A stretch of 64,000 bases of DNA from an uncultured Gemmatimonadaceae bacterium (lineage in GTDB: Bacteria; Gemmatimonadota; Gemmatimonadetes; Gemmatimonadales; GWC2-71-9): assembly GCA_964578865.1 (NCBI GenBank), contig CAZOES010000002.1, positions 31,243-95,242 of the forward strand. The letters run 5' to 3'. Numbering within the stretch: the first letter of the stretch is position 1; each line of letters begins with the position of its first letter. Positions 12,797 to 60,796 of this stretch are shown here, piece by piece. The notes beneath the pieces are model-generated. The model ran no database searches. It saw only the letters and a list, made by a program, of their open reading frames with translations, and was not told where the DNA came from. A program made the position numbers and the translations under genes.

Positions 12797-12830
12797 CTAC
12801 CCGCCTACCCGCCTGGCCGTCCAGCCGCTT
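12797..12830. repeat. Solo tandem 8-mer arm ((G)GCGGGTAG-type on the minus strand)
   Basis: Minus strand after TAA: GCGGCTGG ACGGCCAG GCGGGTAG GCGGGTAG. Confidence 0.5.
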
Positions 12831-14232
12831 ACTGCTCAATCACCTGCATCAGGAAATCCGCCGCCCGGGGATCCCGGCTCTGCGAGAGCCAGAAAATCGC
12901 CTTCTTCTTGAGTTCCTTATCGGGATCGGACTTGGCGATCGCCATCAGCTTGTCGACTGCTTCCTTCTCCCGCCGCTGGGAGTAGACGAAGATCAGCTGC
13001 TCCCGCATCTCCGGCTCCTTCATCCGCTCGTACAGCGAGATCAGATCGGTGACCGAAGCCTTGGTCTGGCCGGCCCAGAACAGCGCCTTTTTGCGCAGCT
13101 CGATGTCCTCCTTGCCGCTGGTGGCGACGTCCATCAGCCACTGGTCGCTCGAGGCCGACCGCACCTGGGAGATCGAGAAGAGAATCTTCTCCTTGAGTTC
13201 GTTGTTCCCGGTCTTGCCGTAGAGCGTCCTCAGGAAGTCGGCGTTGCCGGCGTCATGCGACTGCCCCAGCCAGAACACCGCCTGCTCCCGCACCTCCTCA
13301 TCGGCACTCTCCCGCATGGCCAGGTCGCGGATGATCTGCTGGGCCCGGCCCACCTTGGTCTGCGACAGTGCGAAGATTGCCTTCTTCTGAATCTCCGGAT
13401 CCTTGGACATCTGGAGGATCGAGTCGAGCGCATTCACCGACCGCTCGGTGCCCACCTGGGAGAGCCAGAACACCGCCTGTTCCCGTACCTCGCTGTCGGG
13501 ATCGTTGCGAGCCGCGTCCAGCAGGATCTGCTCGGTCTCTTCGGTACGCTTCTGCGAAACCAGGAAGACCGCCTTGCGCCGGAGGACCTCGGAGCACTTC
13601 TCCCGCCGGGCCAGCACCCGCTTGAGAATCGGCATCGCCTTGTCGGCGTCCAGCTGGAGCAGCGCGTTCAGCGCGGCGATCCGGGTGTCGTCCTCATCCT
13701 CGGTGCAGTCACCGCTGCTGTTCCGGCTGCCGGAACTGGAACTCGACGCACCGCCGCCCGACGACCGGCCCGGTGCCACCGATTCCGCCGCCACCGAGAC
13801 CCGGCGGGCTGCTTCGGCATCGCCCAGCTGAGCCAGCTGGCCCTCCACCCGGGTCCGCAGGGTGGCCGCATCGCCGTTGCTGGCCGCCTTGGGATACTTC
13901 TCCTGCTGATAGGTCAACAGCCGGCGGGCCTCGCGCAGTTCCTCCCCGCCGCCCAGACGGTAGCGGGCGAAGGCTTCCCAGTAGTAGCTGTCGGCCACAT
14001 AGCGCGACTTGGGCTGCTGATCCCGCAGTTTGCGGAAGAGGTCGGCCGCGCTGCGATAGTTAGACGAGTTCAGGGCCGCCCGAGCCGCCCGATAGAGCGA
14101 ATCGGCCGGATCGTCATCTACCCACCGGCCCAGCAGGGTCCACTCGGACCGGGGGTCCGGCAGGACCGGGCTGCTCACCACCGGGCGACTGAAGACGATG
14201 CCGGTCAAGGCCAGCAGAAGTGTGACACGCAT
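12829..14232 (-). CDS. Secreted TPR (BamD-like) plus HEAT-repeat protein
   Basis: Signal peptide; ADSLYRAAR...YYWEAFARY TPR; Ser/Gly linker; about seven E(V/I)R..A(V/I)F(W/A)LSQ repeats. Confidence 0.8.
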   Translation of the reverse strand: MRVTLLLALTGIVFSRPVVSSPVLPDPRSEWTLLGRWVDDDPADSLYRAARAALNSSNYRSAADLFRKLRDQQPKSRYVADSYYWEAFARYRLGGGEELREARRLLTYQQEKYPKAASNGDAATLRTRVEGQLAQLGDAEAARRVSVAAESVAPGRSSGGGASSSSSGSRNSSGDCTEDEDDTRIAALNALLQLDADKAMPILKRVLARREKCSEVLRRKAVFLVSQKRTEETEQILLDAARNDPDSEVREQAVFWLSQVGTERSVNALDSILQMSKDPEIQKKAIFALSQTKVGRAQQIIRDLAMRESADEEVREQAVFWLGQSHDAGNADFLRTLYGKTGNNELKEKILFSISQVRSASSDQWLMDVATSGKEDIELRKKALFWAGQTKASVTDLISLYERMKEPEMREQLIFVYSQRREKEAVDKLMAIAKSDPDKELKKKAIFWLSQSRDPRAADFLMQVIEQ

Positions 14233-14234
14233 GT

Positions 14235-14861
14235 TCAGCTTGCTCCTGGAATATTGGTGGCGGGCCCGGCCGGAATTGAGGTTCTCAGCCTGGGCAGCAC
14301 ACCCTGTTGATCGAGTTCATGCACAATCAGATCGGCGTCCTCCCGGGACGGATCGGCCTGCAGCTGGGCCACCTGGGCCAGCACCACTTCCAGCTCCCGC
14401 AGCAGTTGCCGCATCCGCTGGTCTTTCAAGTCCGGGGAATCGAGCAGCAGTCGAGTGGTGCTGAGCAGATCGCGAGCCCCGGAGAGCAGCTGCTGATCGG
14501 GCACCCGGCTGCTGGCCTCCAGCTTGAATCCGACCAGGAAAGTCTCGGCCCGGCTCAGGTGCTGCAGCGCCGCGCTGGCCATCGCCGGAGAAACCGGTCC
14601 CTGATTGGTCGGTGGATCGGTCGCCACCTGGGTGGGAGGCAGCTCCTTGTTATCCTCGGTGGCGCGGCCCAGCCCGAACCCGATCGCAATCAGCGCCGCG
14701 ATGCCCAGCGGCCAGACAATCTTCTTATAGGGGCTCGGCTGCTGCCGGGCCTTCTTCCGGGCCTCGATGGCCGCCCACATCTCATCACGGGGCGGAACCG
14801 GGGGCCGGTTGTATTCCTCACGAGCCTGTTCCAGCAGGCGGTCCATCGGGTCTTCAGTCAT
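14235..14861 (-). CDS. Putative single-pass anti-sigma factor without a ZAS motif
   Basis: Overlaps the sigma stop; short cytoplasmic N-terminus, one TM (IVWPLGIAALIAIGFGLG), helical extracytoplasmic domain; no HxxxCxxC. Confidence 0.65.
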   Translation of the reverse strand: MTEDPMDRLLEQAREEYNRPPVPPRDEMWAAIEARKKARQQPSPYKKIVWPLGIAALIAIGFGLGRATEDNKELPPTQVATDPPTNQGPVSPAMASAALQHLSRAETFLVGFKLEASSRVPDQQLLSGARDLLSTTRLLLDSPDLKDQRMRQLLRELEVVLAQVAQLQADPSREDADLIVHELDQQGVLPRLRTSIPAGPATNIPGAS

Positions 14862-15433
14862 CGGTTCCAGTCTCCTGCATGAGGTCCGAGTGCGGTCCTC
14901 AACCTGGCGCGGGCCCGGAACAGCTGGGCTTTCGAGGTGCCCGGATCGATCCCGAGCAGGCCGCCAATTTCCTCGTGGGTGTATCCCTCCAACTCGTGCA
15001 GCACCAGCACAGCGCGATAGCCATCCGGCAGCATGTCGATCGCCTCGTAAAGCTTCTTCCGCAGATCCGGCTCCAGCCCCGGCTTGCTGCTGGCGATCGG
15101 TTCGGCTTTTTCCAGATCCTGCTCCCGGTCCCAGCGCCGCTTCCGCTGTCTCAACCCCGTCAGGGTCACGCTGATCGCGATGCTCCCCAGCCAGGTCGAG
15201 AAGGACGACTCCCCGCGGAAGGTGGCCAGCCGGTCAAAAGCCCGGACAAACGCATCCTGGGTGAACTCCCGGGCCAGCTCGGCGTCGCCCGCCATCCGAT
15301 ATACCATCCGGTAGACCCGGTCCACATGGCGATCGTACAGGTCCCGCTCCGCGGCGGGATCGCCGATGAGGGCTCGCGCGATCACCGCGCGGTCGTTCCC
15401 GGGGTTGGCCCGGATGGTCATGGGCGATGCCAT
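14858..15433 (-). CDS. ECF RNA polymerase sigma-70 factor
   Basis: Region 2 (ARE.TQDAFVRAF...FRGESSFSTWL) and region 4 (LPDGYRAV.VLHELEGYTHEEIG..LGI..GTSKAQLFRAR). Start taken at 15433 (or 15421), not 15571. Confidence 0.92.
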   Translation of the reverse strand: MASPMTIRANPGNDRAVIARALIGDPAAERDLYDRHVDRVYRMVYRMAGDAELAREFTQDAFVRAFDRLATFRGESSFSTWLGSIAISVTLTGLRQRKRRWDREQDLEKAEPIASSKPGLEPDLRKKLYEAIDMLPDGYRAVLVLHELEGYTHEEIGGLLGIDPGTSKAQLFRARARLRTALGPHAGDWNR

Positions 15434-15444
15434 TGGCTGGACGG

Positions 15445-15472: not shown

Positions 15473-15591
15473 GTGCGACCCCCCGGAGGGGCGGGGCATC
15501 CTACCCCCTGCCCGGTAAGATCCTGGGAGACCACCGGTTTCCCACCCCCGAAATGCTTCATTCCGGATCACCCTCGAGGAGGCTTCGCATC

Positions 15592-16746
15592 ATGGCCAGG
15601 CTGGTTGGTCGGTTCGGCGCGGCACTGCTGACACTCGCGGTTCCCGCCACTCTCGTCGCTCAAGGCAAGGTCGCGGAACAGCGGCTGGAAAAGGCCGAGG
15701 CCGAGTTCCCGGAATCATTCGACCAGATTGGGGCCCTGCGTGAACTGCCGGGCGGTAAGGTCCTGCTGGTGGACCTTGGTCCCAAGTCGCTCATTCTCGC
15801 CGATTTCAAGAGCGGCCAGCAGACGGCGGTCGGTCGCAACGGTCAGGGTCCCGGCGAGTACCAGTTTCCCGGCGCCCTGATTCCTTATCTGGGTGACTCC
15901 ACCTTGCTGGTGGATCTGGTCAGTCGCCGGCTGTTGACGGTGAGCGCTGACGGCAAGATGGGCAAGACGGTTCCATTCCCCGACGCACTCCAGGGGCTGG
16001 CGCAGCCCCGGGGGGCCGATCGTCAGGGGCGGATCTATCTGCAGGCCAGTCCCTTCCGGATCGGCGATGGAGATGGTCCGCCGGCCACGCCTCCCGAATC
16101 GACGGTCGTAATCAGGTGGGACCGCAGCAAGAACAAGATCGACACCATCGCCAAGGTGAAGATCCCGGCTACAAAAATGAACGCCTCCAATTCCGGCGGC
16201 GCTCGCATTGTGATGATGCGGCCGCAGCCGTATGCCCCGCAGGATGAATGGGCCACGACCGGGGACGGCCGCCTGGGCGTGGTTCGGGTAGGTGACTACC
16301 ACGTGGACTGGTACGGCGACCGCGCCGCCAGGGGCACCCCGGTGCGCTACGACCCGGTGAAGGTGACTGCCGACGACAAGACCCAGTTCATGGATGCGCT
16401 GAGGAACACCCGCAACCGCATCACCGTGACCAATGGCGGGCCGGGCGGCGGCCGGGAGCTCAGACCACCGGAACCATCGGCTGATGAATTCGACTGGCCC
16501 GAGGTGAAGCCCCCGTTCCGGTCCCGTCAGGTCTATGCCAGCCCCGACGGCCAGCTCTGGGTCCAGCGTTACACCGCCGCACGTGATTCGGTTCCGGCCT
16601 TCGATGTCTTCGACGCCAGTGGCAACCTGGCCGGCCGGATGACCCTTCCCAAAGGCCGGCAGGTCGTCGGACTGGGTCAGGGGACGGTGTACGCGGTTCG
16701 GACCGACGGTGATGGACTGCAGTGGCTGGAGCGGTATAAGCGGTAA
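15592..16746 (+). CDS. Secreted six-bladed beta-propeller protein, paralog of the two at 9.4-11.6 kb
   Basis: RBS GAGGAGG then ATG 15592; signal peptide; GQGPGEY, WATTGDG, KPPF, SPDGQLWVQR, FDVFDASG. Confidence 0.75.
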   Translation: MARLVGRFGAALLTLAVPATLVAQGKVAEQRLEKAEAEFPESFDQIGALRELPGGKVLLVDLGPKSLILADFKSGQQTAVGRNGQGPGEYQFPGALIPYLGDSTLLVDLVSRRLLTVSADGKMGKTVPFPDALQGLAQPRGADRQGRIYLQASPFRIGDGDGPPATPPESTVVIRWDRSKNKIDTIAKVKIPATKMNASNSGGARIVMMRPQPYAPQDEWATTGDGRLGVVRVGDYHVDWYGDRAARGTPVRYDPVKVTADDKTQFMDALRNTRNRITVTNGGPGGGRELRPPEPSADEFDWPEVKPPFRSRQVYASPDGQLWVQRYTAARDSVPAFDVFDASGNLAGRMTLPKGRQVVGLGQGTVYAVRTDGDGLQWLERYKR

Positions 16747-16754
16747 CAGCAACA

Positions 16755-16831
16755 GCGTGAAAAGTGAAACGTGAAATGTGAACGGGACCGGGCCAACTTC
16801 CTTCTCACTTTTCACTTTTCACTTTTCACGC
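16755..16831. repeat. Tandem-heptamer inverted-arm element (GTGAAAN x4 / TTTTCAC x4)
   Basis: GTGAAAA GTGAAAC GTGAAAT GTGAAC, spacer, TTCTCAC TTTTCAC TTTTCAC TTTTCAC; between convergent genes. Confidence 0.85.
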
Positions 16832-16838: not shown

Positions 16839-17582
16839 TCACCGTTCTCCACTTACGGCGTAAGAACGGGTCGGCACCGCCCACCGAATTCCCCGTTCCA
16901 CGTACCCGAAACGCCGCAGGGCCATCTCGATTACCCACTCCCAGCCGGCCCGGGCGACCGCCTCGACCCAGGCCATTTCAGTCGCGAGCCGGAGCCAGCG
17001 CCGGAGCGAGCGAGGATCCACCCCCGCGGTCAACGCCGCCAACTCGAGCGACACGTGGCCCGGTAGTGCCGGGGCGGTGAGGATCTGGACCAGCCGAGCC
17101 AGTCCCCGCCAGTCGCGCACCTCCAGCGAGCCCAGGGCGCGGACCCGCCGGGTCAATGTCCGAGGTGGACGGGGGTCGTCTCCCCCGTCGCCGAAGCAGG
17201 CGCCAAGGGTGCTGGCAGTGCCCGGTCGGGCCAGCCGTTTCTCGACCCAGAGCGCGATGGTGGTCGGTTGGGGAGTCGGTCGCCGGGCAATCGCGCGGAG
17301 GGCCCGTTCGGCCGGCGCGAGCCCGGGATAGTCACCGGGGTAGAGCGGGGCGAAAACTCCCGGGACGGACTCAAAAGCAGAAAGGCACGCACTCGACACT
17401 TTCCGGTCGGCGACGCAGGTGACCAGAGGGCACCACGGCGCGTCCCGGTGTTCCTGTACCGCTTCCGACAACGCGGTGATGCCGGCGGAGAGATCCGCCA
17501 CGATTGCCGACCCAACCGGTGGCCGAAAGGAGCCGGCGGGAAGGAACCGCAGGTACGGAGGTTCGAGAATATGGAGTGACAC
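16839..17582 (-). CDS. Divergent AraC/XylS-like transcriptional regulator
   Basis: Two HTH-like segments, PPRTLTRRVRALG and SLELAALTAGVDPRSLRRWL; unassigned N-terminal domain; divergent from the propeller/peptide genes. Confidence 0.5.
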   Translation of the reverse strand: MSLHILEPPYLRFLPAGSFRPPVGSAIVADLSAGITALSEAVQEHRDAPWCPLVTCVADRKVSSACLSAFESVPGVFAPLYPGDYPGLAPAERALRAIARRPTPQPTTIALWVEKRLARPGTASTLGACFGDGGDDPRPPRTLTRRVRALGSLEVRDWRGLARLVQILTAPALPGHVSLELAALTAGVDPRSLRRWLRLATEMAWVEAVARAGWEWVIEMALRRFGYVERGIRWAVPTRSYAVSGER

Positions 17583-21768: not shown

Positions 21769-21845
21769 CGTGAGACGGGAGACGTAAGCCGTGAGCCGCA
21801 CCTGGCTCACGTTGACGTCCCACCTCTCACGTCTCACGTCTCACG
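21769..21845. repeat. Tandem-heptamer inverted-arm element (GTGAGAC / GTCTCAC)
   Basis: GTGAGAC GGGAGAC GTAAGCC GTGAGCC ... GGCTCAC ... GTCCCAC CTCTCAC GTCTCAC GTCTCAC; fills the gap between the MFP and RND1 genes. Confidence 0.8.
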
Positions 21846-21851
21846 GTTGTT

Positions 21852-24800
21852 ATGTCCCTCGCCTCTACCGCCCTTAAACGTCCGGTCACCACCATCGCGG
21901 CAACCATCGCACTGGTTCTGCTCGGTGCGGTGTCGCTGGGTCGGCTGCCGGTAACTCTGCTTCCCGACGTCACCCTGCCGGTGCTGACTATTCGCACCCT
22001 CTATCCCGGCGCGGCGGCCACCGAAGCGTCCCGCTTTGTGGCGGAACCGGTTGAAGAAGCGATTGCGGCGACGCCGGGTCTGGTGGAGTTGCGTTCGGTG
22101 AGCCGGAACGGCGAGGTCACTACCACCGCGCAGTTTGCCTGGGGCACCGACATGGCTGCCACCGTGCTGACAGTACGGGAGCGACTGGACAACGCCCGAG
22201 CCCAGCTGCCGGAGACCGCCGAACGTCCCACGCTGCTGACCAGCGATCCGGGTCAGCGGCCGATCGCTGTCCTGGGTGTTACCGGCTCGGGCGACCAGCG
22301 AGCCATTGCCCGGCTGGCCGAACAGGTGCTGGCCCGCCGGCTGGAACAACTGGATGGCATCGCCAGTGTAGCGGTGACCGGGGTGCCGGAAGACGAGATC
22401 CGGGTCGAACTGGATCCGGGCCGGCTCCGGGCGCTGGATCTCACCACCGAGAACGTGGTAACCGCAATCAGGAACGCCAATGCCGCCGCGCCGGGCGGGA
22501 CCATCCGGCGGGGTCAATTCCGGTTCTCGGTACGGGCGCTGACTGAACTTCGTCAGCTCGATGAGTTCGCCCAGATTCCGGTAGGCCAGTCGGGGCGGGC
22601 CGGCGGTCCGATCAAACTCTCCGACGTCGGCAAGGTCTCGCTCGCCACCGCCGATCCCCGGACCCTGACCCGGCTCGACGGTACTCCCGGTATCGGTCTG
22701 GTGGTCTACAAGGATGCCGGAGCCAACACCGTTGCGGTCACCAGTGACATGGTGGAGACCGTGGAGCAGCTGGGGAAGGAATTCCCCGAGGTCAAGCTCA
22801 AGGTGGTGGCGGCTCAGGCCCGCTTCGTGACCGACGCCCTTTCCAACCTGACTCAGGAAATTGTCGCCGGCGGGCTGCTCTCGCTGCTGCTGATTCTCCT
22901 CTTTCTGCGCGATTGGCGCAGCGCCCTGGCCATCGGTCTGATCGTTCCCCTTTCGGTGCTGGTTTCACTCACCGCGCTGCAGATGCTCGGCGTTACCATC
23001 AACGTTCTCTCGCTGGGCGGACTGGCCCTGGGTGTCGGTCTGCTGGTGGACAATGCCATCGTGGTGTCGGAGGCCACCGGGCGATATCGCGAGGAAGGGA
23101 TGGAGCGCTGGGTGGCCGCCAAGGTCGCTGCCGAGGAAGTCTCCGGTCCGCTGATCGCCGGAACCCTGACGACGGTACTGGTTTTCGGACCGATCGTATT
23201 CGTCCGTGGTCTGGCGGCGGCGCTGTTCCGCGATCTCTCACTCGCGGTAGTCGCCTCGCTGACCGCGTCGCTGATTCTGGCGCTGACCTTGATGCCGGTC
23301 CTTCTGGTGGGTCGAAGAAAGACGGGCGCGACGGGCAAGACGGGCCACAACGATCCGTCCGGCCCGCCTGCCTCGTCCGCCGCGCCCGTCTCCTGGCTGA
23401 CCCGGCTTGGCCTGCAACTGGCCGAGTGGTATGAACACGGCATGATGTGGTCGCTGGATCATCCCCGCACCGTGTTCACCATTTCGATTGGGTCGACTGC
23501 GCTGGCCGCCTGGCTCACGCTGCAGTTGCCGCGGGAAATCCTGCCTCAGGTGGACGAAGGGGTTGCGATTGCCTCGCTACGACTGCCGGAAGGCACCGCA
23601 ATCGAGGAAACCGCCCGTCAGGCCGCCCGAGTGGAAGCCGCGGCGAGCAGTCTCGGGTCTAGAGGGATCTACTCCCGAATCGGCGCCGCCACTGACGAGG
23701 AGCTGGTGTCCGGGGCCGAGCCGGGCGGGCCCAGTTATGCACAGCTGCTGTTGCCGGTCCCCAGCGGATCGCCGGCCCGGAAATTTGCCGATCAGTTGCG
23801 AGCCAGGATCCCCGATCTGGCACAGGGCGGTCTGGCCATCGACCTGGCGGGTCAGTCGGAGTTCGGCAGTCTGATCGGCCGGGAGGGCCGGTTGCTCCGG
23901 GTGGAGATTGCCTCACCCGATCGACGCACCACCGCGCGGTGGGCCGATACCGCTCGGACTTTGCTCAACGGAGTGCCCGGACTCACCGACGTTCGCGATG
24001 CCTACGCCGGAACTCAGCCGGTCATCGAGCTGAGTCTGGAGCGCGAGCGGATCGCGTTGCACAATCTGTCGATCGATGCCGTCTCCAGCGCATTGGCCGG
24101 CGGATTGGGGGGCGTCAAGGCGAGCGAGCTGCGGGAGACCGACCGGCGAACTCCCATCCGGGTCCGCTACGAGGGCAGTGCTAACGAAGACCTGGCTACC
24201 GCACTCAACGCCACCATCAGCGGAGTGCCACTGGGACAACTGGTACAGGTGAAGGAAGTACGTGACCCGGTCGAAGTGGTGCGGGTCGACCAGCGCCCGG
24301 TGCAGGTACTCGAGGCCGCGGTCGAACGAGGGGGCACCGCCAAAGCGGTCGAGCGGGTGCAGAGCACCCTCGCCGGTCTGGCCGCTCCGGCCGGCCTCAC
24401 CTGGCAGATCGGCGGGGCCGACACCGAGCAACGCCGGACCCTCTCCGAGATGGGGGTGGTCGCGGTACTGTCGGTGGCGCTGATGTTTCTGGTGCTGGCC
24501 GGTGAATTCGCCTCGTTCACCATTCCGCTGCTGGTGATGCTCACGGTTCCGCTGGCCGGAGTGGGCGGGATCGTAGTGCTCTGGCTGACCGGCCAGAGTC
24601 TCAATGCGGTGTCGTTGATCGGTATGGTGGTGATGATCGGTCTGGCCGACAATGACGCGGTGGTGAAACTCGATGCCATCCGTCGGTTCCGGGAGGAAGG
24701 GCACTCGATCCGGGAGTCGGTGTTGCTGGGTGGACGCCAGCGGCTCCGCGCGATCGCCATGACCTCGCTGACTACCATCGTGGGTGTGCTGCCCCTGGTG

Positions 24801-25025
24801 ATGGGTTGGGGCAGCGGCGGCGAGCTGTACCAGCCGCTGGCCGCCGGGGTAATCGGTGGCTCGGTGACCGCCACCCTGGTGACCTTCTTCCTGCTTCCAA
24901 CAGCATATGCGGTGGTCGAAGAGCGGGCTGAGAAACGTCAGGCGGTCAGGCGGTCAGGCGGTCAGGAAGCAACTGATTCCGACTCAGGTCCGACCGCCCG
25001 TCCGCCTGTCCGCCCGACCGCCTGA
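21852..25025 (+). CDS. RND efflux permease 1 (AcrB/AcrD/AcrF family)
   Basis: 1057 aa; LKRPV..., PVEEAI, GLLVDNAIVV (TM4), IGLADNDAVV (TM10), RLRAIAMTS (TM11). Confidence 0.93.
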   Translation: MSLASTALKRPVTTIAATIALVLLGAVSLGRLPVTLLPDVTLPVLTIRTLYPGAAATEASRFVAEPVEEAIAATPGLVELRSVSRNGEVTTTAQFAWGTDMAATVLTVRERLDNARAQLPETAERPTLLTSDPGQRPIAVLGVTGSGDQRAIARLAEQVLARRLEQLDGIASVAVTGVPEDEIRVELDPGRLRALDLTTENVVTAIRNANAAAPGGTIRRGQFRFSVRALTELRQLDEFAQIPVGQSGRAGGPIKLSDVGKVSLATADPRTLTRLDGTPGIGLVVYKDAGANTVAVTSDMVETVEQLGKEFPEVKLKVVAAQARFVTDALSNLTQEIVAGGLLSLLLILLFLRDWRSALAIGLIVPLSVLVSLTALQMLGVTINVLSLGGLALGVGLLVDNAIVVSEATGRYREEGMERWVAAKVAAEEVSGPLIAGTLTTVLVFGPIVFVRGLAAALFRDLSLAVVASLTASLILALTLMPVLLVGRRKTGATGKTGHNDPSGPPASSAAPVSWLTRLGLQLAEWYEHGMMWSLDHPRTVFTISIGSTALAAWLTLQLPREILPQVDEGVAIASLRLPEGTAIEETARQAARVEAAASSLGSRGIYSRIGAATDEELVSGAEPGGPSYAQLLLPVPSGSPARKFADQLRARIPDLAQGGLAIDLAGQSEFGSLIGREGRLLRVEIASPDRRTTARWADTARTLLNGVPGLTDVRDAYAGTQPVIELSLERERIALHNLSIDAVSSALAGGLGGVKASELRETDRRTPIRVRYEGSANEDLATALNATISGVPLGQLVQVKEVRDPVEVVRVDQRPVQVLEAAVERGGTAKAVERVQSTLAGLAAPAGLTWQIGGADTEQRRTLSEMGVVAVLSVALMFLVLAGEFASFTIPLLVMLTVPLAGVGGIVVLWLTGQSLNAVSLIGMVVMIGLADNDAVVKLDAIRRFREEGHSIRESVLLGGRQRLRAIAMTSLTTIVGVLPLVMGWGSGGELYQPLAAGVIGGSVTATLVTFFLLPTAYAVVEERAEKRQAVRRSGGQEATDSDSGPTARPPVRPTA
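24938..25025. repeat. Tandem-octamer inverted-arm element embedded in the 3' end of RND1
   Basis: (GGCGGTCA)x3 ... CCGACCGC CCGTCCGC CTGTCCGC CCGACCGC CTGA; translated as QAVRRSGGQEATDSDSGPTARPPVRPTA*. Confidence 0.8.
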
Positions 25026-28030: not shown

Positions 28031-28119
28031 GGGCGGAAGGGGCGGAAAGGGCGGAAGGGGCGGAAGACTAAGACTTCCGCCTTTTCCGCTTTTTCCGCCT
28101 CTTTCGCCTCTTCCGCCTT
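28031..28119. repeat. Tandem-nonamer inverted-arm element (GGCGGAAGG / CTTCCGCC)
   Basis: Four GGCGGAA(A/G)G units directly after TGA, 7-nt loop, five TTCCGCC-type units. Confidence 0.85.
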
Positions 28120-35964: not shown

Positions 35965-35968
35965 AATA

Positions 35969-36045
35969 CGTGAGACGTGAAAGGTGAAATGTGAAAAGGG
36001 GCTCCGGCGCAAAGTCAGAGCCCTTTTCACTTTTCAGGTTTCACG
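35969..36045. repeat. Tandem-heptamer inverted-arm element (GTGAAAN / TTTTCAC)
   Basis: GTGAGAC GTGAAAG GTGAAAT GTGAAAA GGGGCTC ... GAGCCC TTTTCAC TTTTCAG GTTTCAC; between convergent genes. Confidence 0.85.
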
Positions 36046-36054
36046 CTTTTTCGA

Positions 36055-39724: not shown

Positions 39725-39779
39725 CCCGCGTTCTCCGGCCCCCATCCGGCCGCTCCCTTTCTCTCCAGTCTGGACCCGC

Positions 39780-42258: not shown

Positions 42259-42260
<2 letters not shown>

Positions 42261-42327
42261 GTACCGGATACCGGGTACCGAGTACCGAGTTGCTCGAGAC
42301 TGATCTCGGTACTCGGTACTCGGTACT
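42259..42327. repeat. Tandem-heptamer inverted-arm element (GTACCGR / TCGGTAC)
   Basis: GTACCGG ATACCGG GTACCGA GTACCGA ... CTCGGT ACTCGGT ACTCGGT ACT; begins in the gyrA stop codon. Confidence 0.85.
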
Positions 42328-42372
42328 TTCAGTTTCCTTGCCCGTCATCTCTTTCGCCGGTACCTTCGCCTC

Positions 42373-45841: not shown

Positions 45842-45863
45842 TTCGCGATCGCCGGATCTGTTG

Positions 45864-45961
45864 CAGGATTTCAGGATAAAGGGGATTTGAAGGATTAGTG
45901 TTGTTGTTTTTCAACCTCGCAACAATCCTTTCAATCGTTTCTCCAATCCTGTAATCCTGTT
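45864..45961. repeat. Degenerate AT-rich inverted-arm element (AGGATT / AATCCT units)
   Basis: CAGGATTT CAGGATAA AGGGGATTT GAAGGATT ... AATCCTTTC AATCGTTTC ... AATCCTGT AATCCTGTT. Confidence 0.7.
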
Positions 45962-46014
45962 CCCCAACTCTGCCTTCGATTCGAAGAACGGATTCTGCAC
46001 AACTGGAGGGGTGG

Positions 46015-49245: not shown

Positions 49246-49260
49246 GAACCTTGGTGAGCC

Positions 49261-50862: not shown

Positions 50863-51656
50863 GGGGAAGGCGGACAGGCGGACAGACGGACACACGGACA
50901 TTACTCTGGTGCCTGGCTTTGATGTCCATTGTCGCTTGTCGAGGGACTCTCTCGCCGCTGTCGAACAAGCTCAAGATCGGGCAGGACTCGTATTTCGTCT
51001 TTGTCGCGGATGGGGAAGACGGGAAGGGAGATCTGTTTGCCTCGCCGGCGGAGGGAGGCAATGCGTTTCAGGTCACGTTCACCCGAGTCGATGAGCGGGT
51101 CCCGGCGCTTTCCCCGGACGGATCGATCCTGGCATTCCTGCGCAGCCGCAGCGCGGAGGACTCGAACTCTTCGCTGGTCATCCTGAATCTGTTGAATGGG
51201 GCCGAGCGTCGAACCGACGCGCCTGCCGGAGCGAGTGCGGTGGCGTGGTCGCAGGACGGTACTTCTATCCTGGTGCGGACTCCATCGGGGATCGGCAGCA
51301 CGGCAGCCCCGCCCCAGCCGCTCGCCCTGGCACCGGTTTCGGGGGCCGAACTGGCAATCGCCGACTCCGCCTTTCGCGCCACTTTCGGCGATCCTCCTCT
51401 GGGTGAGGTGCTCACCTGTTCGTCCGGCCGAGGGGTGTGCGCTCGTCTTACCAGCGGCGATTCGCTGACTCTGGCTCCAGAGGGGTCCCAGCCGGTAAGC
51501 TGGAGCAGTGATTCGGTGGCCTATCTGGAGGGCGGAGCGTTCGTGGTACGGCCGTTGGCGGGAGGTCGGACCCGGACGATCCGGTGGAGTACTCAGGTCA
51601 GGAACCCGAGGGGGCTGACGTACTTCCCAGGGAACTACGTGAAGCGTGAAAAGTAA
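50859..51656 (+). CDS. TolB-like (PD40) lipoprotein
   Basis: Probable GTG start overlapping the upstream TGA; lipobox IVAC; ALSPDGSILAF, WSQDGTSI. Confidence 0.65.
   Translation: MRGRRTGGQTDTRTLLWCLALMSIVACRGTLSPLSNKLKIGQDSYFVFVADGEDGKGDLFASPAEGGNAFQVTFTRVDERVPALSPDGSILAFLRSRSAEDSNSSLVILNLLNGAERRTDAPAGASAVAWSQDGTSILVRTPSGIGSTAAPPQPLALAPVSGAELAIADSAFRATFGDPPLGEVLTCSSGRGVCARLTSGDSLTLAPEGSQPVSWSSDSVAYLEGGAFVVRPLAGGRTRTIRWSTQVRNPRGLTYFPGNYVKREK
50869..50900. repeat. Solo tandem 8-mer arm (GGCGGACA-type x4)
   Basis: GGCGGACA GGCGGACA GACGGACA CACGGACA just after the M1 stop. Confidence 0.7.
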
Positions 51657-51726: not shown

Positions 51727-52344
51727 CTAGTTCCCCGCCCCCGCAGTCGGCTTCGCCGCAATCGCGTCCCACGCGGCCTCGAGCGCCATGTTCACCGGTG
51801 CACTCTCCGCAGTCCACTCGCCCGAAGCAACCCGCTCAGCCGCATAGCCAACGATCGCCAGCCACACCGAGGCCCAAAGCTCGGCCGGGCCGGGCCTGAC
51901 CTGTCCATCGGACTTCCCCATCGCCACCAGCTGGACCAATCCATCCACAAAATCGCGTCGCAATCCCCGGCTCTGCTGATCCAGGAAGGGCTCGTGTGCG
52001 GTGGAGAGGAGCATGTGGATGATCGGGGGGTCGGCCGCTGCCGTATCGGTGAGGGTCTTGGCCAGCAGGGCGAGCCGCTCGGGGCCTCGGCGCAGCCGGT
52101 CGCTGTCGAACCCTTGGATGACTCCGACCGCCCACCGATGGGCTCGGCGATACACCTCGTTGAGGAGATGCTCTTTGCTGGTGAAGTGCCGGTAGATGGT
52201 TCCTTCCGCCACTCCGGCGCGTTCAGCCAGCGCAGGCGTGGTGGTACTCAGAAAGCTGCTGGCTCCGTACAACTCCAGCGCGGCGCGCAACAGGCGCTCT
52301 TTGGTGGCCTCACCGTCTCGGCGGGTGGTGCGGGCGGTGGTCAT
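51727..52344 (-). CDS. TetR/AcrR family transcriptional regulator
   Basis: TKERLLRAALELY...TTT..LAERAGVAEGTIYRHFTSKE.L. Confidence 0.92.
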   Translation of the reverse strand: MTTARTTRRDGEATKERLLRAALELYGASSFLSTTTPALAERAGVAEGTIYRHFTSKEHLLNEVYRRAHRWAVGVIQGFDSDRLRRGPERLALLAKTLTDTAAADPPIIHMLLSTAHEPFLDQQSRGLRRDFVDGLVQLVAMGKSDGQVRPGPAELWASVWLAIVGYAAERVASGEWTAESAPVNMALEAAWDAIAAKPTAGAGN

Positions 52345-52355
52345 GGGGGAAATAA

Positions 52356-52387
52356 GGGCGGAAGGGCGGAAGGGCGGAAGGGCGGAA
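52356..52387. repeat. Perfect solo (GGGCGGAA)x4 array, G-quadruplex-compatible
   Basis: Four exact copies; GGG-N5-GGG-N5-GGG-N5-GGG. Confidence 0.85.
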
Positions 52388-53010: not shown

Positions 53011-53040
53011 CGCCATCCCGAGCGGAGCGAGGGATCCCTC
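53011..53040. repeat. GTCATCC-type repeat, half copy (copy 3)
   Basis: CGCCATCCCGAGCGGAGCGAGGGATCCC resembles the left halves of 33895 and 49164; between convergent genes. Confidence 0.55.
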
Positions 53041-57995: not shown

Positions 57996-58014
57996 AAGAA
58001 TTCAGGAGCTAGCG

Positions 58015-59232
58015 ATGGGTGTCTCTGCTGCCGCGGTTCCCGGTGATCCGATTGCCTCGAACCGGGCTCGCTTTCGTCTGGAAAGCGTCGATGTACTCCG
58101 CGGCATCGTCATGATCATCATGGCACTGGACCATGTGCGCGACTTCTTCGGCAACTACGCCCAGAGCCCTACCGATCTGGCAACCACCACGCCGGCGCTC
58201 TTCTTCACCCGCTGGATCACCCACTTCTGCGCTCCAACCTTCTTCCTCCTCACCGGAGTCGGCTCCCGCATTTCGCTGCGGAACAAGTCGGCCGCTGAGC
58301 TTTCCCGGTTCCTGGTGACTCGAGGGTTCTGGCTGGTTTTTCTCGATGCCGTGGTGGTCCGTTGTCTGGGTATGCAGTTCAATTTCGACTACCGGGTCAC
58401 CGTCCTGAATGTTCTCTGGGCCCTCGGCTGGTCGATGGTCGGTCTCTCGATTCTGGTGCGCTTCTCGCCCAAGGTCCCGTTGATCGTGGGCGTTGTGCTT
58501 ATTCTGGGGCATAACGCGCTCGACGGGATTCAAGCCCAAAGCTTCGGGGTCCTGGCCCCACTGTGGAGTTTTCTGCACGCACCCGGGTTCCTGTTCCCCG
58601 GCCCCGATCACATGGTGCTGCTGGCCTACCCGATAATCCCCTGGGTTGGAGTCACGGCGCTGGGCTATGCGATGGGTGAAGTGTTCAGCTGGGAACCGGA
58701 GGCGCGGCGCCGCCACCTGTTAAGGGCGGGGGGTGCGCTGATCGTGGCGTTCCTGCTGCTGCGGGGGCTCAATATCTACGGCGACCCCAGCCCCTGGTCG
58801 AGCCAGGCGACGCCGCTGATGACCCTGATCTCCTTTCTCAATACCACCAAGTATCCGCCTTCGCTGTCATTCCTGTTGATGACGCTGGGCCCTTCGCTCT
58901 GGGTCTTGGCGCTGCTCGAGCGGCGTACTCCCCGGCTGCTCCAGCCCGCCCTGACATTCGGCCGGGTGCCGTTGTTTTACTTCGTGGTGCACTTGACGCT
59001 GATTCACGGGTTGGCCGTAGTGGCCTGCTATTTCCGGTATGGCGAAATCCACTACATGTTCGAGTCGCCCAGTCTGGACAAGTTCCCTTTCACCCAGCCG
59101 CCCAACTGGCCCTACTCGTTAGCAATGGTCTATGTGTGGTGGGTAGGGATCGTGGCGCTACTGTATCCGCTGAGTCGCTGGTTCGCAGGGGTTAAAGCGC
59201 GGCGGCGGGACTGGTGGCTGAGCTATCTGTAG
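58015..59232 (+). CDS. DUF1624 / HGSNAT-like multi-pass membrane acyltransferase
   Basis: RLESVDVLRGIVMIIMALDHVRD, RWITHFCAP.F, RG.WL, KYPPSL.FLLMTLG, GRVPLF.YVVH. Confidence 0.85.
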   Translation: MGVSAAAVPGDPIASNRARFRLESVDVLRGIVMIIMALDHVRDFFGNYAQSPTDLATTTPALFFTRWITHFCAPTFFLLTGVGSRISLRNKSAAELSRFLVTRGFWLVFLDAVVVRCLGMQFNFDYRVTVLNVLWALGWSMVGLSILVRFSPKVPLIVGVVLILGHNALDGIQAQSFGVLAPLWSFLHAPGFLFPGPDHMVLLAYPIIPWVGVTALGYAMGEVFSWEPEARRRHLLRAGGALIVAFLLLRGLNIYGDPSPWSSQATPLMTLISFLNTTKYPPSLSFLLMTLGPSLWVLALLERRTPRLLQPALTFGRVPLFYFVVHLTLIHGLAVVACYFRYGEIHYMFESPSLDKFPFTQPPNWPYSLAMVYVWWVGIVALLYPLSRWFAGVKARRRDWWLSYL

Positions 59233-59336
59233 GTAGAAACAGGATTATAGGATGCGGGTGATCAATACTTGAGTGATTGTGATTTCAATGCAGTCCGTTT
59301 CGATCCTTGAAATCCTCTAATCCTGTTCACTACCTA
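59230..59336. repeat. Degenerate AT-rich inverted-arm element (AGGATT / AATCCT), same family as 45864
   Basis: TAGGTAG-AAACAGGATTATAGGAT ... GATCCTTGAAATCCTCTAATCCTGTTCA-CTACCTA; between convergent genes. Confidence 0.7.
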
Positions 59337-59340
59337 AACA

Positions 59341-60633
59341 TTATTGCACCTTGAATCGTCCCACCTTACTGAACAGTCCCTGCGCCGTCTCTGACAACGA
59401 ATGCGCCGAGCCGGCCACCTGCTCGGTAGATGCCGAGAGCTCCTGAGCGCTCGCCGCAATCTGCTGAGCCGCCGCGGCAACGTCTTCCGTCCCACTCGAC
59501 ACTTCCGCCATTCGAGTGGCAATCCCCTCGATCAGGCTTCGCACTTCGCCTGAGCTCTGCGAAATCTGCCGGCCCCACTCGTCAGTCTGGTGGGCTTCCT
59601 CGGCCACCCGGGCCAGACCTTCAGCCGCCTTGTGGGCCGTGGCCCGTGCGGCCTGACCGCCCTGGGCCAGGCGCAACAGCCGGTCTTTCGCGGTGGCCAC
59701 CCGCTCCTGCACCAGCTGCACCGTCTCGCTGGTAAGGGTCGCGGCCTGGGCTGCCTGTCCCGCCAGCTTGCGGACCTCTTCCGCCACCACCGCGAAGCCC
59801 TTGCCCTCTTCGCCGGCGCGGGCAGCCTCGATACCGGCGTTGAGCGCCAGCATGTGAGTCTGACGGGCGATCGCCTTGGTCTGGGTAACGAACTTCTCAA
59901 TTTGCTCAGAGGCCGCAGCCAGCGCGGCTGCCTCTTCGGCGCCCTTCTCGATTTCCTCGGCCAGGCGCTGCAGCTCACTGGAGCTGGCGTCGAGCTCGTC
60001 CCGATGAGCCCGGGCCAGCCGGGCCAGCGCGGCGTTGCGGTCGGCCGCTTCACCCGCGCTTACCGCCAGGGTCTGGGCGATCTGGAGAATCCGGTCGCCG
60101 TCCTGAGCCGCGGCCCGGACCACGGCGGCCTGCTTGGTCGCCCGATCGGTCAGGTCGTTGCAGGTCCCCGAGACTTCCTCGGTCGAGGCGCTCATCTGCT
60201 GGGTCGAACTGGAAATCTCCTGCGCCATCGCCGCCGCCTCCTGGGCGCTGCCTCGAATGGCACCCACCAGATTGCGCAGCTGGCTCACCATCAACCCCAC
60301 CGCCTGGGTGAGACTGTTGGCTTCTCCCCGCCCTGCGGATGAGAGTGAGACGGTGAGATCGCCCTCGGCCACCCGAGTGGCGACTACGATGGTGTTGCCC
60401 AGAGGGCGCAGCAGATTCCGGCGCAGCCAGCTGACCGTGAAGATGATGACCAGCGCAGCGAGGATCAGGTAGGCGCCGAGGGCCCCGGCGGCCACCGGCC
60501 AGAAGCGCCCAGGAGGAAATTCGCCCGCCCCGAAGGCCCAGAAGACACCCACCTCGAGCAGGCCGAGGCCGAGCATCAGGAGTGCCGACACGATGTAGAT
60601 GCTGCGGGTGAACCGCCGTCGTTGGTCGGACAT
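59341..60633 (-). CDS. Methyl-accepting chemotaxis protein (2 TM, HAMP, signalling domain) without a ligand-binding domain
   Basis: Two TM helices about 10 aa apart; [12 protein letters not shown]; [37 protein letters not shown]. Confidence 0.92.
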
Positions 60634-60704
60634 CTAGGAGTTTCGGTAAGTGGGGGTGAGGGTGGAACTTAGGCCCTCAGGCCGGGTTCCGGCAAGCAGA
60701 CGGA

Positions 60705-60796
60705 CGTTCCTCGTTCCTCGTTCCTCGTTTCGGCGCTGAGCTAGGCCTTGACGGCGGTGCGCACCCCAAGGAACCAGGAACGAGGAACCAGGAACC
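60705..60796. repeat. Tandem-heptamer inverted-arm element with reversed polarity (GTTCCTC x3 / SAGGAAC x4)
   Basis: GTTCCTC GTTCCTC GTTCCTC ... AAGGAAC CAGGAAC GAGGAAC CAGGAAC; in the divergent MCP/leuS gap. Confidence 0.8.

Follow-up and report, generated by a model that had tools for sequence, protein, structure and literature searches.

Many palindromes with arms of 7-9-base repeats were found on the chromosome of a Gemmatimonadales soil bacterium, mostly right behind stop codons and changing fast. The window, the whole 64-kb stretch of DNA that was analysed, is a housekeeping chromosomal stretch and contained 11 paired elements and three single arms (Table 1). All 13 sites of an earlier sequence-only reading (ten paired elements and three single arms) were located by reading the sequence, and their positions agreed within about 3 nt. 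Ten of them followed the plan of 2-5 tandem 7-9-nt units, a spacer, and the reverse-complement units over a total length of 69-108 bp; the sites at 12797, 50869, and 52356 were single arms. The earlier count missed one paired element, 23320-23391, inside the AcrB ORF. The existence of tandem-arm palindromes at gene ends was confirmed. Our best, though tentative, reading is that they are DNA-level palindromic repeat elements that may renew themselves in place via slippage and hairpin-templated repair. On this reading, the elements are DNA entities and not designed RNA signals.

Table 1. Tandem-repeat elements of the window, their gene context, and the corresponding sites in relatives (L numbers). 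In the text, elements are named by the starts first given for them.
Position	Type	Strand	Repeat structure	Fold or detection	Context	Relatives
12797..12814	single arm	-	(GGCGGGTA)x2, read on - strand		14 nt past stop of HEAT-repeat gene 12829-14232(-), ahead of 11976-12773(-)	L085: GGCGGACA-type units
16755..16831	paired		(GTGAAAN)x4, about 22-nt centre, (TTTTCAC)x3-4	z -8.6	convergent genes 15553-16746(+) and 16839-17582(-)	L082, L085, L086: different GTGA/GTAA units
21769..21846	paired		GTGAGAC-type units	folding and inverted-repeat search	within efflux operon, membrane-fusion gene (stop 21765) to AcrB1 (start 21852)	GTGAGCG (L082), GTGAACG (L085), GTGAGAC (L086)
23320..23391	paired, degenerate		(GACGGGCNN)x3 and inverted copy		AcrB1 ORF, hypervariable loop past TM6; translated	L082, L085: (GTTCCGA)x4..(TCGGAAC)x4; L086: GTTCCGC units; all in frame
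24937..25025	paired		(GGCGGTCA)x3, centre, (GNCCGCCN)x4		codes final ~29 residues of formal AcrB1 ORF; last TGA overlaps AcrB2 ATG	
28031..28118	paired		(GGGCGGAAG)x4, 7-nt loop, U-enriched CTTCCGCC-type units	-68.5 kcal/mol, z -9.7	first base is the next after AcrB2 stop	
35966..36046	paired		(GTGARAN)x4, palindromic centre, (TTTTCAC)x3		convergent genes NAGPA 35032-35964(+) and GGDEF 36055-37047(-)	GTGAGNA x10 (L167); same family (L168); CACGAAGA 8-mers (L169)
42259..42328	paired		(GTACCGR)x4, 15-nt centre, (CTCGGTA)x3		starts at gyrA stop; 45 nt upstream of cysteine synthase (PALP-domain) gene, here cysK	
45862..45962	paired, degenerate		AGGATT-type units	z -6.0	22 nt past Ser/Thr kinase stop; upstream of dienelactone hydrolase gene	same unit type in L173; GCAGATTA(C) units in L167, L168; none in L170
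50864..50900	single arm	+	(GGCGGACA)x4		immediately 3' of M1 peptidase stop codon	missing in L167, L168; different single purine-rich arm in L170
51636..51716	paired		(GTGAARN)x4, centre, (NTTTCAC)x4		overlaps stop of ORF 50823-51656(+), opposite end of convergent TetR 51727-52344(-)	
52354..52387	single arm		(AGGGCGGA)x4		divergent TetR / thioredoxin-like gene pair	other single arrays in L167
59228..59335	paired, degenerate		AGGATTA-type units	z -4.9	overlaps stop of 58015-59232(+); convergent with MCP gene 59341-60633(-)	
60703..60798	paired, opposite layout		(CGTTCCT)x3, about 40-nt centre, (AGGAACS)x4		divergent MCP and leucyl-tRNA synthetase genes	

A scan of the window for arrays with a period of 6-10 returned 22 arrays, and 15 of these had an inverted partner within 110 nt. 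The 40 dinucleotide shuffles gave 0.68 ± 0.88 arrays per shuffle (maximum 3) and no array with an inverted partner. Furthermore, tandem-repeat elements accounted for 19 of the window's 25 longest inverted repeats. When folded, all paired elements reached -32 to -68 kcal/mol, with z values of -4.2 to -9.7 relative to shuffled sequences.

Each element is a quasi-palindrome whose outer arms consist of 2-10 tandem copies of a 7-9-nt unit, commonly about four per arm, and whose centre is usually a small palindrome as well. The sequence-only reading had stressed that the unit differs between copies, but the units are not arbitrary: a fixed core of 4-5 nt is accompanied by free positions, and the cores recur as families. 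The GTGA core was found in elements 16755, 21769, 35969, and 51636, the GGCGG core in 12797, 24938, 28031, 50869, and 52356, the GGATT core in 45864 and 59230, and the GGAAC core in 60705; at least six distinct cores occur in the 64-kb window. The GGGCGGAA(G) unit was present at two window loci, a single contig (L082/L168) carried GTTCCGA at three, and spacers were unrelated between copies having a unit in common. The purine-rich arm came first, as had been claimed, in 10 of the 11 paired elements, while 60705 was reversed. Since the elements are palindromes, this order is a trait of layout and not of strand.

The elements occupied the first bases after stop codons, C-terminal tails, a cytoplasmic RND-pump loop, and some 5' regions, which we read as the places where additional sequence is tolerated. 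Both the distances and direct reading bore out the claim that 11 of the 13 cited sites have a stop codon within 25 nt. Element 24938 is not behind a stop codon, and the AcrB ORF formally runs through it to the TGA; the Pfam profile match stops at residue 1022 of 1057. The absence of terminator U-tracts was mostly right, but the 3' arms of 28031, 35969, and the GTGAAAA-type elements are U-rich themselves. No canonical terminator was called at the elements, and there was no excess of terminators overall. Nearly all non-trivial 3' junctions in the window carried some hairpin, tandem or not. This hints that hairpins behind genes have a use of their own, a point against the DNA-level reading.

In relatives, the same junctions were occupied with the same unit core (GTGA, GGCGG, GGAAC, or GATT) in lineages with protein identities as low as about 84%. 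The MFP/AcrB1 junction carried GTGAGAC, GTGAGCG, and GTGAACG, the AcrB1/AcrB2 junction GGCGGTCA, GGCGGACC, and GGCGGGAA, and the junction after the 397-aa gene GTGAAAA, GTAAGGA, and GTGAGAC. Whole arms changed within this framework. At gyrA/cysK, L167 and L168 have GTTCCGA/TCGGAAC and the window has GTACCGA/TCGGTAC, with every unit of both arms changed; in L172, three of four 5' units read GTGCCGA while the 3' arm has kept TCGGAAC. These patterns indicate that units are homogenised within an arm and that the other arm compensates later or never. Copy number also shifted arm by arm; the DLH end had 3-4 versus 10 units, the NAGPA end 10 versus 4.

The centres were replaced. Between L167 and L168, identity is 90% at third codon positions and about 87% just 3' of the elements, whereas their element centres were 32-65% identical, against a shuffled baseline of 50 ± 4% (maximum 60%). 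The elements were stable among L082, L083, and L084 (0.03% divergence).

These observations suggest a tentative mechanism. Slipped-strand mispairing in one arm would add, remove, or homogenise units, and hairpin extrusion would allow one arm to template repair of the other. Because the arms can pair in any register, a change could spread through the array. Breakage and imprecise repair at the fragile hairpin tip may renew the centre at a rate far above that of neutral change. Slippage alone leaves the persistence of the core and the palindromic new centres unexplained. Against an origin in place, one unit at several loci of a genome could mean dispersal or templated synthesis. In a transcript across an element, a stem of 26-36 bp would follow closely on the stop codon. 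It probably acts as a barrier at the 3' end or as a site of double-strand-specific (RNase III-type) processing, and the long RNA stem is probably a secondary effect.

It is also conceivable, although rather unlikely, that the RNA stem is the primary function, as a U-tract-independent terminator, a 3'-exonuclease barrier, or an RNase III processing site. RNase III sites would set relative cistron stability, and tandem arms would be the way in which stems lengthen. The proximity of 11 of 13 sites to a stop codon, the highly stable stems, canonical terminators without excess, and other hairpins at most remaining 3' junctions are consistent with this. Junctions stay occupied in relatives with both arms at times changing jointly, and A/T-rich units (GTGAAAA/TTTTCAC) at three convergent junctions place A- and U-tracts beside the stem. 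The 23S rRNA intervening sequences, long stems cut out by RNase III, may serve as an analogy. However, the 1x1 stem mismatches on the sense strand, only 46 in 21 co-directional or intragenic elements, comprised 11 G-U, 13 A-C, and 22 others; without G-U bias, they do not suggest that an RNA stem is under selection. In some cases (L082 MFP/AcrB1; L172), the arms match at just 5 of the 7 positions of a unit, many orthologous junctions manage without an element, and single arms and divergent-junction copies cannot be 3' hairpins. The palindrome is retained by the in-frame copies inside AcrB1, a place in which a terminator would make no sense. Centre turnover beyond that of synonymous sites is the opposite of purifying selection. 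In line with the sequence-only reading, the elements behave as fast-changing DNA-level entities and not as conserved terminators, given that centres are unrelated at 10% synonymous divergence and copies lie in frame within an ORF.

The elements had also been proposed as relics of a mobile or repeat-generating system, with a suggested link to four-helix-bundle (23S rRNA IVS protein, PF05635) genes. This link was verified. Across 80 metagenome loci, period-7/8 arrays had a density of 2.25 per kb up to 200 nt from a PF05635 gene versus 0.20 per kb in the rest of these loci, about 11-fold higher, and 52 of the 80 had at least one array. Many arrays were inverted arms enclosing the gene, directly after a host gene stop and inside operons. 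Such cassettes could be the putative autonomous form with tandem-heptamer terminal inverted repeats, and the window elements MITE-like derivatives that lack cargo and re-insert by preference at stop codons or in existing hairpins. We consider this unlikely. It is favoured by filled copies that have cargo-less neighbours built from the same unit (L148, L135, L104) and by the presence of one unit at several loci of a genome, and repeated re-insertion would account for unrelated centres. In-frame gene-internal copies also recall Rickettsia palindromic elements. The expected filled and empty junctions were seen among close relatives, the filled state starting exactly at the stop codon: gyrA/cysK was filled in four lineages (window, L167, L168, L172) and empty in at least ten (L169-L171, L173, L001-L006), and the junction of TetR with the Tricorn-like gene (ORF 50823-51656) was filled only in the window and empty in L167, L168, and L170. 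Comparison of filled and empty gyrA/cysK sites, however, revealed none of the predicted target-site duplications. Cargo-carrying copies exist in the metagenomes, but the window, as had been noted, holds no four-helix-bundle gene, and none was found in 418 kb of Gemmatimonadales DNA with about 80 arrays. Both the window (about 48 genes) and the 418 kb of related DNA also yielded no transposase, integrase, or reverse transcriptase. Copies share the unit and never the spacer, unlike MITEs, and the unit core is kept junction by junction across lineages. The earlier proposal is supported in part, but the elements are not simple relics of inserted mobile elements. Repeat generation in place fits the data better than a mobile and empty element.

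Arrays of binding sites for a protein recognising the core motif at 7-9-nt spacing are very doubtful. Global-regulator or IHF/HU sites were proposed for the Geobacter metallireducens paired repeats and post-transcriptional regulator sites for TAACTGA repeats (PMC2700814, PMC4679880), and a fixed core with other positions free and about four units per arm agree with binding. However, at least six cores occur in one 64-kb window and drift among close relatives, the elements lie behind genes and inside an ORF instead of at promoters, and a 7-nt period leaves sites off a single face of duplex DNA. Least probable of all are quadruplexes, as proposed for Xanthomonas and Nostoc GGGNATC repeats and demonstrated in vitro for Xanthomonas units (PMC4692102): (GGGCGGAAG)x4 (28031) and (AGGGCGGA)x4 (52354) fit four G3 tracts, 5-6 nt apart, with four units each, but the GTGAAAA, GTGAGAC, GTACCGA, AGGATT, and GGAAC families lack G-tracts, and the common trait is the inverted tandem layout and not G-richness, so the whole family cannot be explained.

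The elements are neither ordinary terminators nor classical transposon relics. Close precedents are known from Xanthomonas (GGGAATC inverted pairs) and Geobacter (paired repeat sites), and similar palindromes had received no more than passing mention for a few other bacteria. The present analysis documents their architecture, enrichment, location, junction and core persistence, whole-arm change, and centre replacement, together with gain and loss, copies inside ORFs, and the link between such arms and four-helix-bundle genes in other microbes.

All 13 sites listed in the sequence-only reading were read again and proved real. Ten were paired elements, in which two to five tandem units of 7-9 nt were followed by a centre and by the reverse-complement units over 69-108 bp in total, and three were single arms. 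One paired element, lying within AcrB1, was additional to that list (Table). When an independent repeat finder was applied to the 64 kb, 19 of the 25 longest inverted repeats were parts of these elements. Our own scan returned 22 arrays of period 6-10 in the window, 15 of them with an inverted partner within 110 nt, compared to 0.68 ± 0.88 arrays and no partnered array in 40 dinucleotide-preserving shuffles. The elements are real, their excess over chance is statistically overwhelming, and their density is approximately one per 5 kb of the window.

Folding gave one long stem of 26-36 pairs for each paired element (-32 to -68 kcal/mol; z = -4.2 to -9.7). The spacers measured 7-40 nt, and the palindrome mostly continued into them, leaving an apical loop of 4-7 nt. 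Periods of 7, 8 and 9 were present, and the units per arm, at most five in the window, reached 10 in relatives. The units were not arbitrary. They combined a fixed core with free positions, and the cores recurred within the window (GTGA four times, GGCGG five times and GGATT twice), with at least six different cores in 64 kb. Of the 11 paired elements, 10 began with the purine-rich arm. This order is a property of the layout and not of the strand, because a palindrome is identical on both strands.

Positions of the elements and of other features (window positions unless a locus of a relative is named; elements are named by their starts)
Feature	Position	Core, unit or motif	Setting
Paired element	16755	GTGA(N3)	
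Paired element	21769	GTGA(N3)	
Paired element	23320-23391	degenerate, 9-nt	AcrB1 hypervariable loop; in frame, translated
Paired element	24937	GGCGG(N3-4)	formal 3' tail of AcrB1; final TGA overlapping the AcrB2 ATG
Paired element	28031	GGCGG(N3-4)	begins at the base after the stop codon
Paired element	35966	GTGA(N3)	
Paired element	42259	unit GTACCGA	begins at the base after the stop codon
Paired element	45862	(A)GGATT	
Paired element	51636	GTGA(N3)	stop codon inside first arm
Paired element	59228	(A)GGATT	stop codon inside first arm
Paired element	60703	GGAAC	divergent junction; the only opposite layout
Single arm	12797	GGCGG(N3-4)	
Single arm	50864	GGCGG(N3-4)	
Single arm	52354	GGCGG(N3-4)	
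Canonical four-tract G-quadruplex motif	28031-28066	(GGGCGGAAG)x4	
Canonical four-tract G-quadruplex motif	52354-52387	(AGGGCGGA)x4	
Non-tandem hairpin	33926-33969	22-nt palindrome	3' junction
Non-tandem hairpin	49165-49250	ACGTCATCCCGAC..GTCAGGATGACGT	3' junction
Non-tandem hairpin	63305-63385	GGCTGGCGGTC..GACCGCCAGCC	3' junction
Possible second repeat family	49171-49188; 53017-53034; 33907-33924; L082 ~3715-3800	CCCGAnnGnAGCGAGGGA	
Conserved box	~39715-39725	GGTATATT	~55-75 nt upstream of gyrA start
Composite element	L082 3649-3912	(GACAGGC)x5, then GTGAGAA-type	orthologue of 16755
Almost spacer-less palindromes	L009 14784-14830; 16549-16596	(GCTGAAT)n/(ATTCAGC)n	1.7 kb apart

The window is ordinary chromosome. 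It contains gyrA, a PALP-domain cysteine synthase gene (here called cysK), the leucyl-tRNA synthetase gene, two RND efflux operons, and genes for kinases, two-component proteins and peptidases, and the nearest relatives of its GyrA and AcrB all belonged to Gemmatimonadales metagenome-assembled genomes. No transposase, integrase, reverse transcriptase or four-helix-bundle protein was found among the approximately 48 window genes. In 11 of the 13 elements, a stop codon lay within 25 nt. Elements were present between MFP, AcrB1, AcrB2 and OEP of one efflux operon, and several stood between translationally coupled genes or within an ORF. Nearly all non-trivial 3' junctions of the window contained a hairpin, tandem or not.

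The motif CCCGAnnGnAGCGAGGGA may mark a second family of small palindromic repeats, located in 3' junctions and within the loop of an element of the relative L082. Five matches with at most two mismatches were obtained compared to 1.63 expected, and five were reached by 1 of 100 shuffles. Separately, the GGTATATT box upstream of gyrA was also conserved in five relatives (the L001-L006 set) and was preceded by a conserved TAAGTC...GACTT segment. The box is probably the gyrA promoter.

Syntenic loci at graded distances were compared for the efflux block (L081, L082-L084, L085 and L086) and for the gyrA block (L001-L012 and L167-L173). The relatives are all metagenome assemblies, and the same elements recurred in independent assemblies. 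Junction occupancy and the unit core persisted among relatives, and the variable unit positions differed. The units at the MFP/AcrB1 junction were GTGAGAC in the window and L086, GTGAGCG in L082 and GTGAACG in L085. Those at the AcrB1/AcrB2 junction were GGCGGTCA, GGCGGACC and GGCGGGAA/GGCGGAAG, and those after a 397-aa gene were GTGAAAA, GTAAGGA and GTGAGAC.

At the gyrA/cysK junction, L167 and L168 carried GTTCCGA/TCGGAAC, and the window carried GTACCGA/TCGGTAC in every unit of both arms. In L172, three of the four 5' units read GTGCCGA and the 3' arm was still TCGGAAC. These whole-arm differences indicate that the units are homogenised within an arm, with the other arm following later or never. 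In the MFP/AcrB1 element of L082, pairing was restricted to five core positions. Arms, and likewise relatives, differed in copy number (3-4 compared to 10 units in one example).

The centres changed as well. L167 and L168 shared 90% third-codon-position identity in gyrA and a neighbouring gene. The centres of four orthologous elements were 32%, 42%, 50% and 65% identical, compared to 50 ± 4% (maximum 60%) after shuffling, and the 45 nt directly downstream of the gyrA element were approximately 87% identical. The centres are rewritten faster than neutral sites change. Strain-level hypermutability was rejected, since the elements were identical in L082, L083 and L084 (0.03% divergence; 8 SNPs in 23 kb).

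Gains and losses of elements were also frequent. The gyrA/cysK junction was filled in the window, L167, L168 and L172, and it was empty in L169, where stop and start codons overlap, as well as in L170, L171, L173 and L001-L006. The window alone carried the element located between a Tricorn-like gene (ORF 50823-51656) and TetR, and likewise the single arm that follows the M1 peptidase gene; an element at the end of the dienelactone hydrolase gene was present in L167 and L168 and not in the window. No target-site duplication was found when filled and empty gyrA/cysK junctions were compared. A GTGA...GTGA bracket was seen there only relative to L169, and the stop/start overlap accounts for it.

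Two further proposals were rejected. The first was an abrupt replacement of the AcrB1/AcrB2 element, proposed because the window differs there from L081, whose protein identity is 98%. After 3 kb of approximately 100% DNA identity, at about 24800 in the window and 3050 in L081, identity dropped to 50-70% in the final 130 nt of AcrB1 and past its end. This break reflects either recombination or a chimeric metagenome contig. The second was the seeding of a unit from local coding sequence, proposed from the gyrA end of L005 (GGTACCGAGGAC), which resembles the window unit. Closer relatives did not contain GGTACCGAGGAC, and the likeness was treated as coincidence.

In L082, the orthologue of 16755 contained two different 5' arrays, and its loop held an insert of approximately 100 nt with its own inverted repeat, which indicates that loops can acquire cargo. 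Paired tandem-repeat palindromes with 10-130-nt centres were also observed at gyrA loci of other phyla (L021, L036, L046, L055, L058, L066 and L078). Their hosts were Omnitrophota, Bacteroidaceae, Thiotrichales, Sedimenticolaceae, Dyella and other Gammaproteobacteria, and L046 and L058 had GTGA-containing units. L009, from a more distant member of Gemmatimonadota, contained two near-identical palindromes whose core, GCTGA, is that typically seen beside four-helix-bundle genes.

Copies of the element were found inside protein-coding sequence. AcrB1 has a hypervariable loop between the conserved LTLMPVLLVGRR and WLTRLG..LAEWYE, which corresponds to the cytoplasmic loop after TM6 of E. coli AcrB. 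This loop is the site of an element. Its coding sequence in L082 and L085 comprised (GTTCCGA)x4 and (TCGGAAC)x4 on either side of a centre, and in L086 GTTCCGC units around approximately 100 nt; each was in frame and translated, as was the window copy. The C-terminal tails of 60 AcrB1 homologues were also hypervariable and resembled translated repeats. The AcrB1 ORF reads through the entire 24937 element, and the overlap of its TGA with the AcrB2 ATG (24922-25027) was also present in L081, L082, L085 and L086. The open frame through 24937-25025 was rejected as a sign of selected translation, since the other frames of this GC-rich DNA were mostly open too.

These comparisons demonstrate a DNA palindrome with tandem-repeat arms whose units are homogenised within an arm, whose core is kept at each junction and whose centre is renewed, and which is gained, lost and tolerated in coding sequence. 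The origin that we favour for these dynamics, at slightly short of an even chance, combines slippage, hairpin-templated correction and repair at the tip. Slipped-strand mispairing would expand, contract and homogenise each arm. Hairpin extrusion would let one arm template the correction of the other in any register, and breakage with imprecise repair at the hairpin tip would renew the centre. These ingredients have support in established knowledge: SbcCD-type nucleases cut palindromes at hairpins, and template switching corrects quasi-palindromes.

A stem of such length following a stop codon is bound to influence the transcript, and an RNA effect is treated as real but probably secondary; by analogy, the stem could act as a 3'-end barrier or as an RNase III-type substrate. 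The stems of 23S rRNA intervening sequences provide the analogy for such processing. The proposal that the RNA hairpin itself is what selection maintains is rather unlikely. What speaks for it is that hairpins are near-universal at the non-trivial 3' junctions. If an RNA stem were selected, mismatches should lean to G-U on the transcribed strand, but the 1x1 stem mismatches in 21 co-directional or intragenic elements, a small test, comprised 11 G-U, 13 A-C and 22 others. Folding gave no consistent order of sense and antisense stem stability. Furthermore, the palindrome is kept inside the AcrB1 ORF, where a terminator or processing role offers no explanation.

The elements share with intrinsic terminators a hairpin shortly after the stop codon, and in 28031 and 35966 an inner GC stem leads into U-rich sequence; only these two have partial U-tracts. 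However, they are not ordinary terminators. The stems are 26-36 bp and not 5-14 bp, a U-tract is mostly missing, and the consensus terminator scan called none of the elements (8 and 10 calls in total compared to 10.1 and 10.9 expected). The copies between MFP, AcrB1, AcrB2 and OEP and the one inside the AcrB1 ORF are not at the ends of transcription units. A consensus sigma-70 promoter scan gave 0 compared to 2.4-2.6 expected in 40 kb, and no match was obtained in Rfam 15 (gathering score) and tRNA scans of the whole window.

The sequence-only reading had pointed to similar arms beside four-helix-bundle genes and had interpreted the elements as empty or non-autonomous relics of a mobile or repeat-generating system. 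To examine four-helix-bundle loci, we used a consensus-like probe validated by its match to PF05635 (E = 4.6e-51) and TIGR02436 (8.3e-50), which returned 80 metagenome loci. Arrays of period 6-10 reached 2.25 per kb within 200 nt of the four-helix-bundle gene, compared to 0.20 in the rest of the same loci, so the link holds. The density was 0.038 in 68 gyrA loci of other phyla, 0.344 in the window and 0.169 in Gemmatimonadales relatives. Near the four-helix-bundle genes, the period was 7 in 65 arrays and 8 in 9, and 52 of the 80 loci had at least one array. Many loci carried (NNTCAGC)n upstream and (GCTGANN)n downstream, or other unit families, in inverted orientation.

The arms of these cassettes are of the same kind as those of the window elements, with three to six or more tandem units, a fixed core such as TCAGC/GCTGA and free positions, in inverted arrangement. 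Their placement is also the same, directly after the host gene's stop codon and inside operons, as in L116, L139 and L146. L135, L104 and L148 showed the order arm, spacer, inverted arm, gene, inverted arm, so that direct copies of one arm flank the gene. In L148, two tandem cargo-less elements stood next to the gene and used the unit of the gene's own arms. The inverted arms around these genes indicate that cargo-carrying versions of the architecture exist. The cassettes enclose a gene of approximately 350 nt, whereas the window elements enclose 7-40 nt, and no PF05635/TIGR02436 ORF lies between the window arms; arm build and placement match. Four-helix-bundle proteins are relatives of the retroelement protein Avd, a reverse-transcriptase accessory protein, and PF05635 genes have been noticed wedged between cas-operon genes.

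Descent of the elements from a mobile four-helix-bundle cassette that re-inserts at stop codons is unlikely. It is favoured by the cargo-carrying cassettes in metagenomes and by the cargo-less copies in L148. Against it, tblastn with the validated probe found no such gene, either in the window itself or in the 418 kb from Gemmatimonadales relatives, with their approximately 80 arrays. Two long-range inverted array pairs (100-2000 nt) were found in gyrA loci, neither with a four-helix-bundle gene. From the earlier interpretation, the DNA-level dynamics and the four-helix-bundle link were retained, but the persistence of junction and core is at odds with the idea that an inserted mobile element left empty relics.

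It is improbable that the inverted tandem arms are written by an unrecognised activity that adds templated repeats at DNA 3' ends, a process of which four-helix-bundle proteins could be part. Both 3' ends of a chromosomal break would be extended with one short unit and then joined, giving (unit)n, filler and (reverse-complement unit)n. Extension of the two ends of a linear fragment would give the opposite layout, as around four-helix-bundle genes and at 60703. If true, this would account for the inverted symmetry, the whole-arm changes, the existence of single arms, the recurrence of one unit at several loci in a genome, the opposite layout around cargo and the lack of relatedness among centres at only 10% synonymous divergence.

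That the elements are arrays of protein-binding sites is very unlikely. Such a reading has been given to Geobacter metallireducens, where classes 1-3 (GTTGCTYN x4, TCTCCGTS[Y] x3 and MTYCTGA x5) of octa- and heptanucleotide sites form mostly opposite-strand pairs at variable distance in gene junctions such as proB-proA; the paired sites are absent from the sister species and were read as sites of unidentified global regulators or of IHF/HU (Aklujkar et al. 2009, PMC2700814). The several unit classes per genome, the opposite-strand pairs and the gene junctions are as in our window. That study contained no comparative or evolutionary analysis and no four-helix-bundle link.

The weakest proposal, very improbable and applicable only to the GGGCGGAA units, is that of G-quadruplexes; two arrays match the canonical four-tract motif, like the Xanthomonas GGGAATC repeats, but the other unit families cannot. 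The Xanthomonas heptamers occur as 2-26 tandem units, four being preferred, with 70-75 convergent inverted pairs per genome that are transcribed and capable of forming stem-loops (Rehm et al. 2015, PMC4692102). Their position and type (single or paired) are mostly kept between two species while repeat length varies, and their one unit family per genome was read as quadruplex-forming (PMC4692102). In contrast, at least six cores, most of them incapable of quadruplex formation, were present in 64 kb here, and the whole-arm unit changes, replaced centres and ORF-internal copies are unreported for Xanthomonas. The window elements share with the Xanthomonas and Geobacter types the tandem arms of 7-9-nt units, the opposite-strand pairs with a variable spacer and the bias to within approximately 50 nt of a stop codon.

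Other tandem short repeats are the cyanobacterial STRR heptamers and the TAACTGA direct repeats of Beggiatoaceae, Cyanobacteria and Bacteroidetes (MacGregor 2015, PMC4679880). These heptamers are intergenic, in 2-6 or more copies near gene boundaries, and their TGA-containing units give stops in all three frames, as do the GTGA-type units here. However, they are almost always direct and single-armed (inverted in 1 of 170 sets), lie just upstream of start codons and use one unit per genome (PMC4679880).

REP/BIME, MITEs and Rickettsia palindromic elements are likewise small palindromes at gene 3' ends, some of them in operons. Rickettsia palindromic elements also occur in frame inside genes. 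In these classes the entire sequence is conserved from copy to copy and depends on a transposase, whereas only the short unit is common here. A MITE or non-autonomous transposon was rejected because the spacers of copies with a common unit are unrelated and the gyrA/cysK junction has no target-site duplication. REP/BIME elements are imperfect palindromes of 20-40 nt with a conserved sequence (GTAG-type head), occurring in many near-identical copies alongside a RAYT gene. They were rejected because copies here have nothing but the 7-9-nt unit in common and the window encodes no Y1 transposase domain. Integron attC sites were excluded by housekeeping flanks in conserved synteny (gyrA, leuS and the RND operon) and by the lack of an integrase and of a shared GTTRRRY core. 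A CRISPR array was excluded by contiguous units of 7-9 nt, inverted between arms, in place of 24-48-nt direct repeats with unique spacers.

Elements of this kind have been seen before and never explained, and new features are added here. Paired tandem-heptamer palindromes were noticed in single-genome papers on Xanthomonas and Geobacter and were interpreted differently each time, as quadruplexes or regulator sites. Among open-access papers and preprints, we found none that linked tandem-repeat arms with PF05635 genes or that described such elements in Gemmatimonadota. Five points are new: the architecture occurs in Gemmatimonadota; junction occupancy and unit core are kept across species; whole arms and centres are rewritten faster than synonymous sites; copies are tolerated in protein-coding sequence; and arms of this kind flank four-helix-bundle ("23S rRNA IVS protein") genes, which are widespread and functionally unexplained. 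Taken together, the five points make up a class open to testing, in which a process at gene ends generates or maintains repeats. Programs that search for repeats, terminators or CRISPR arrays are confused by it. The process would shape operon transcripts and protein termini, and it may offer a handle on the function of four-helix-bundle proteins.
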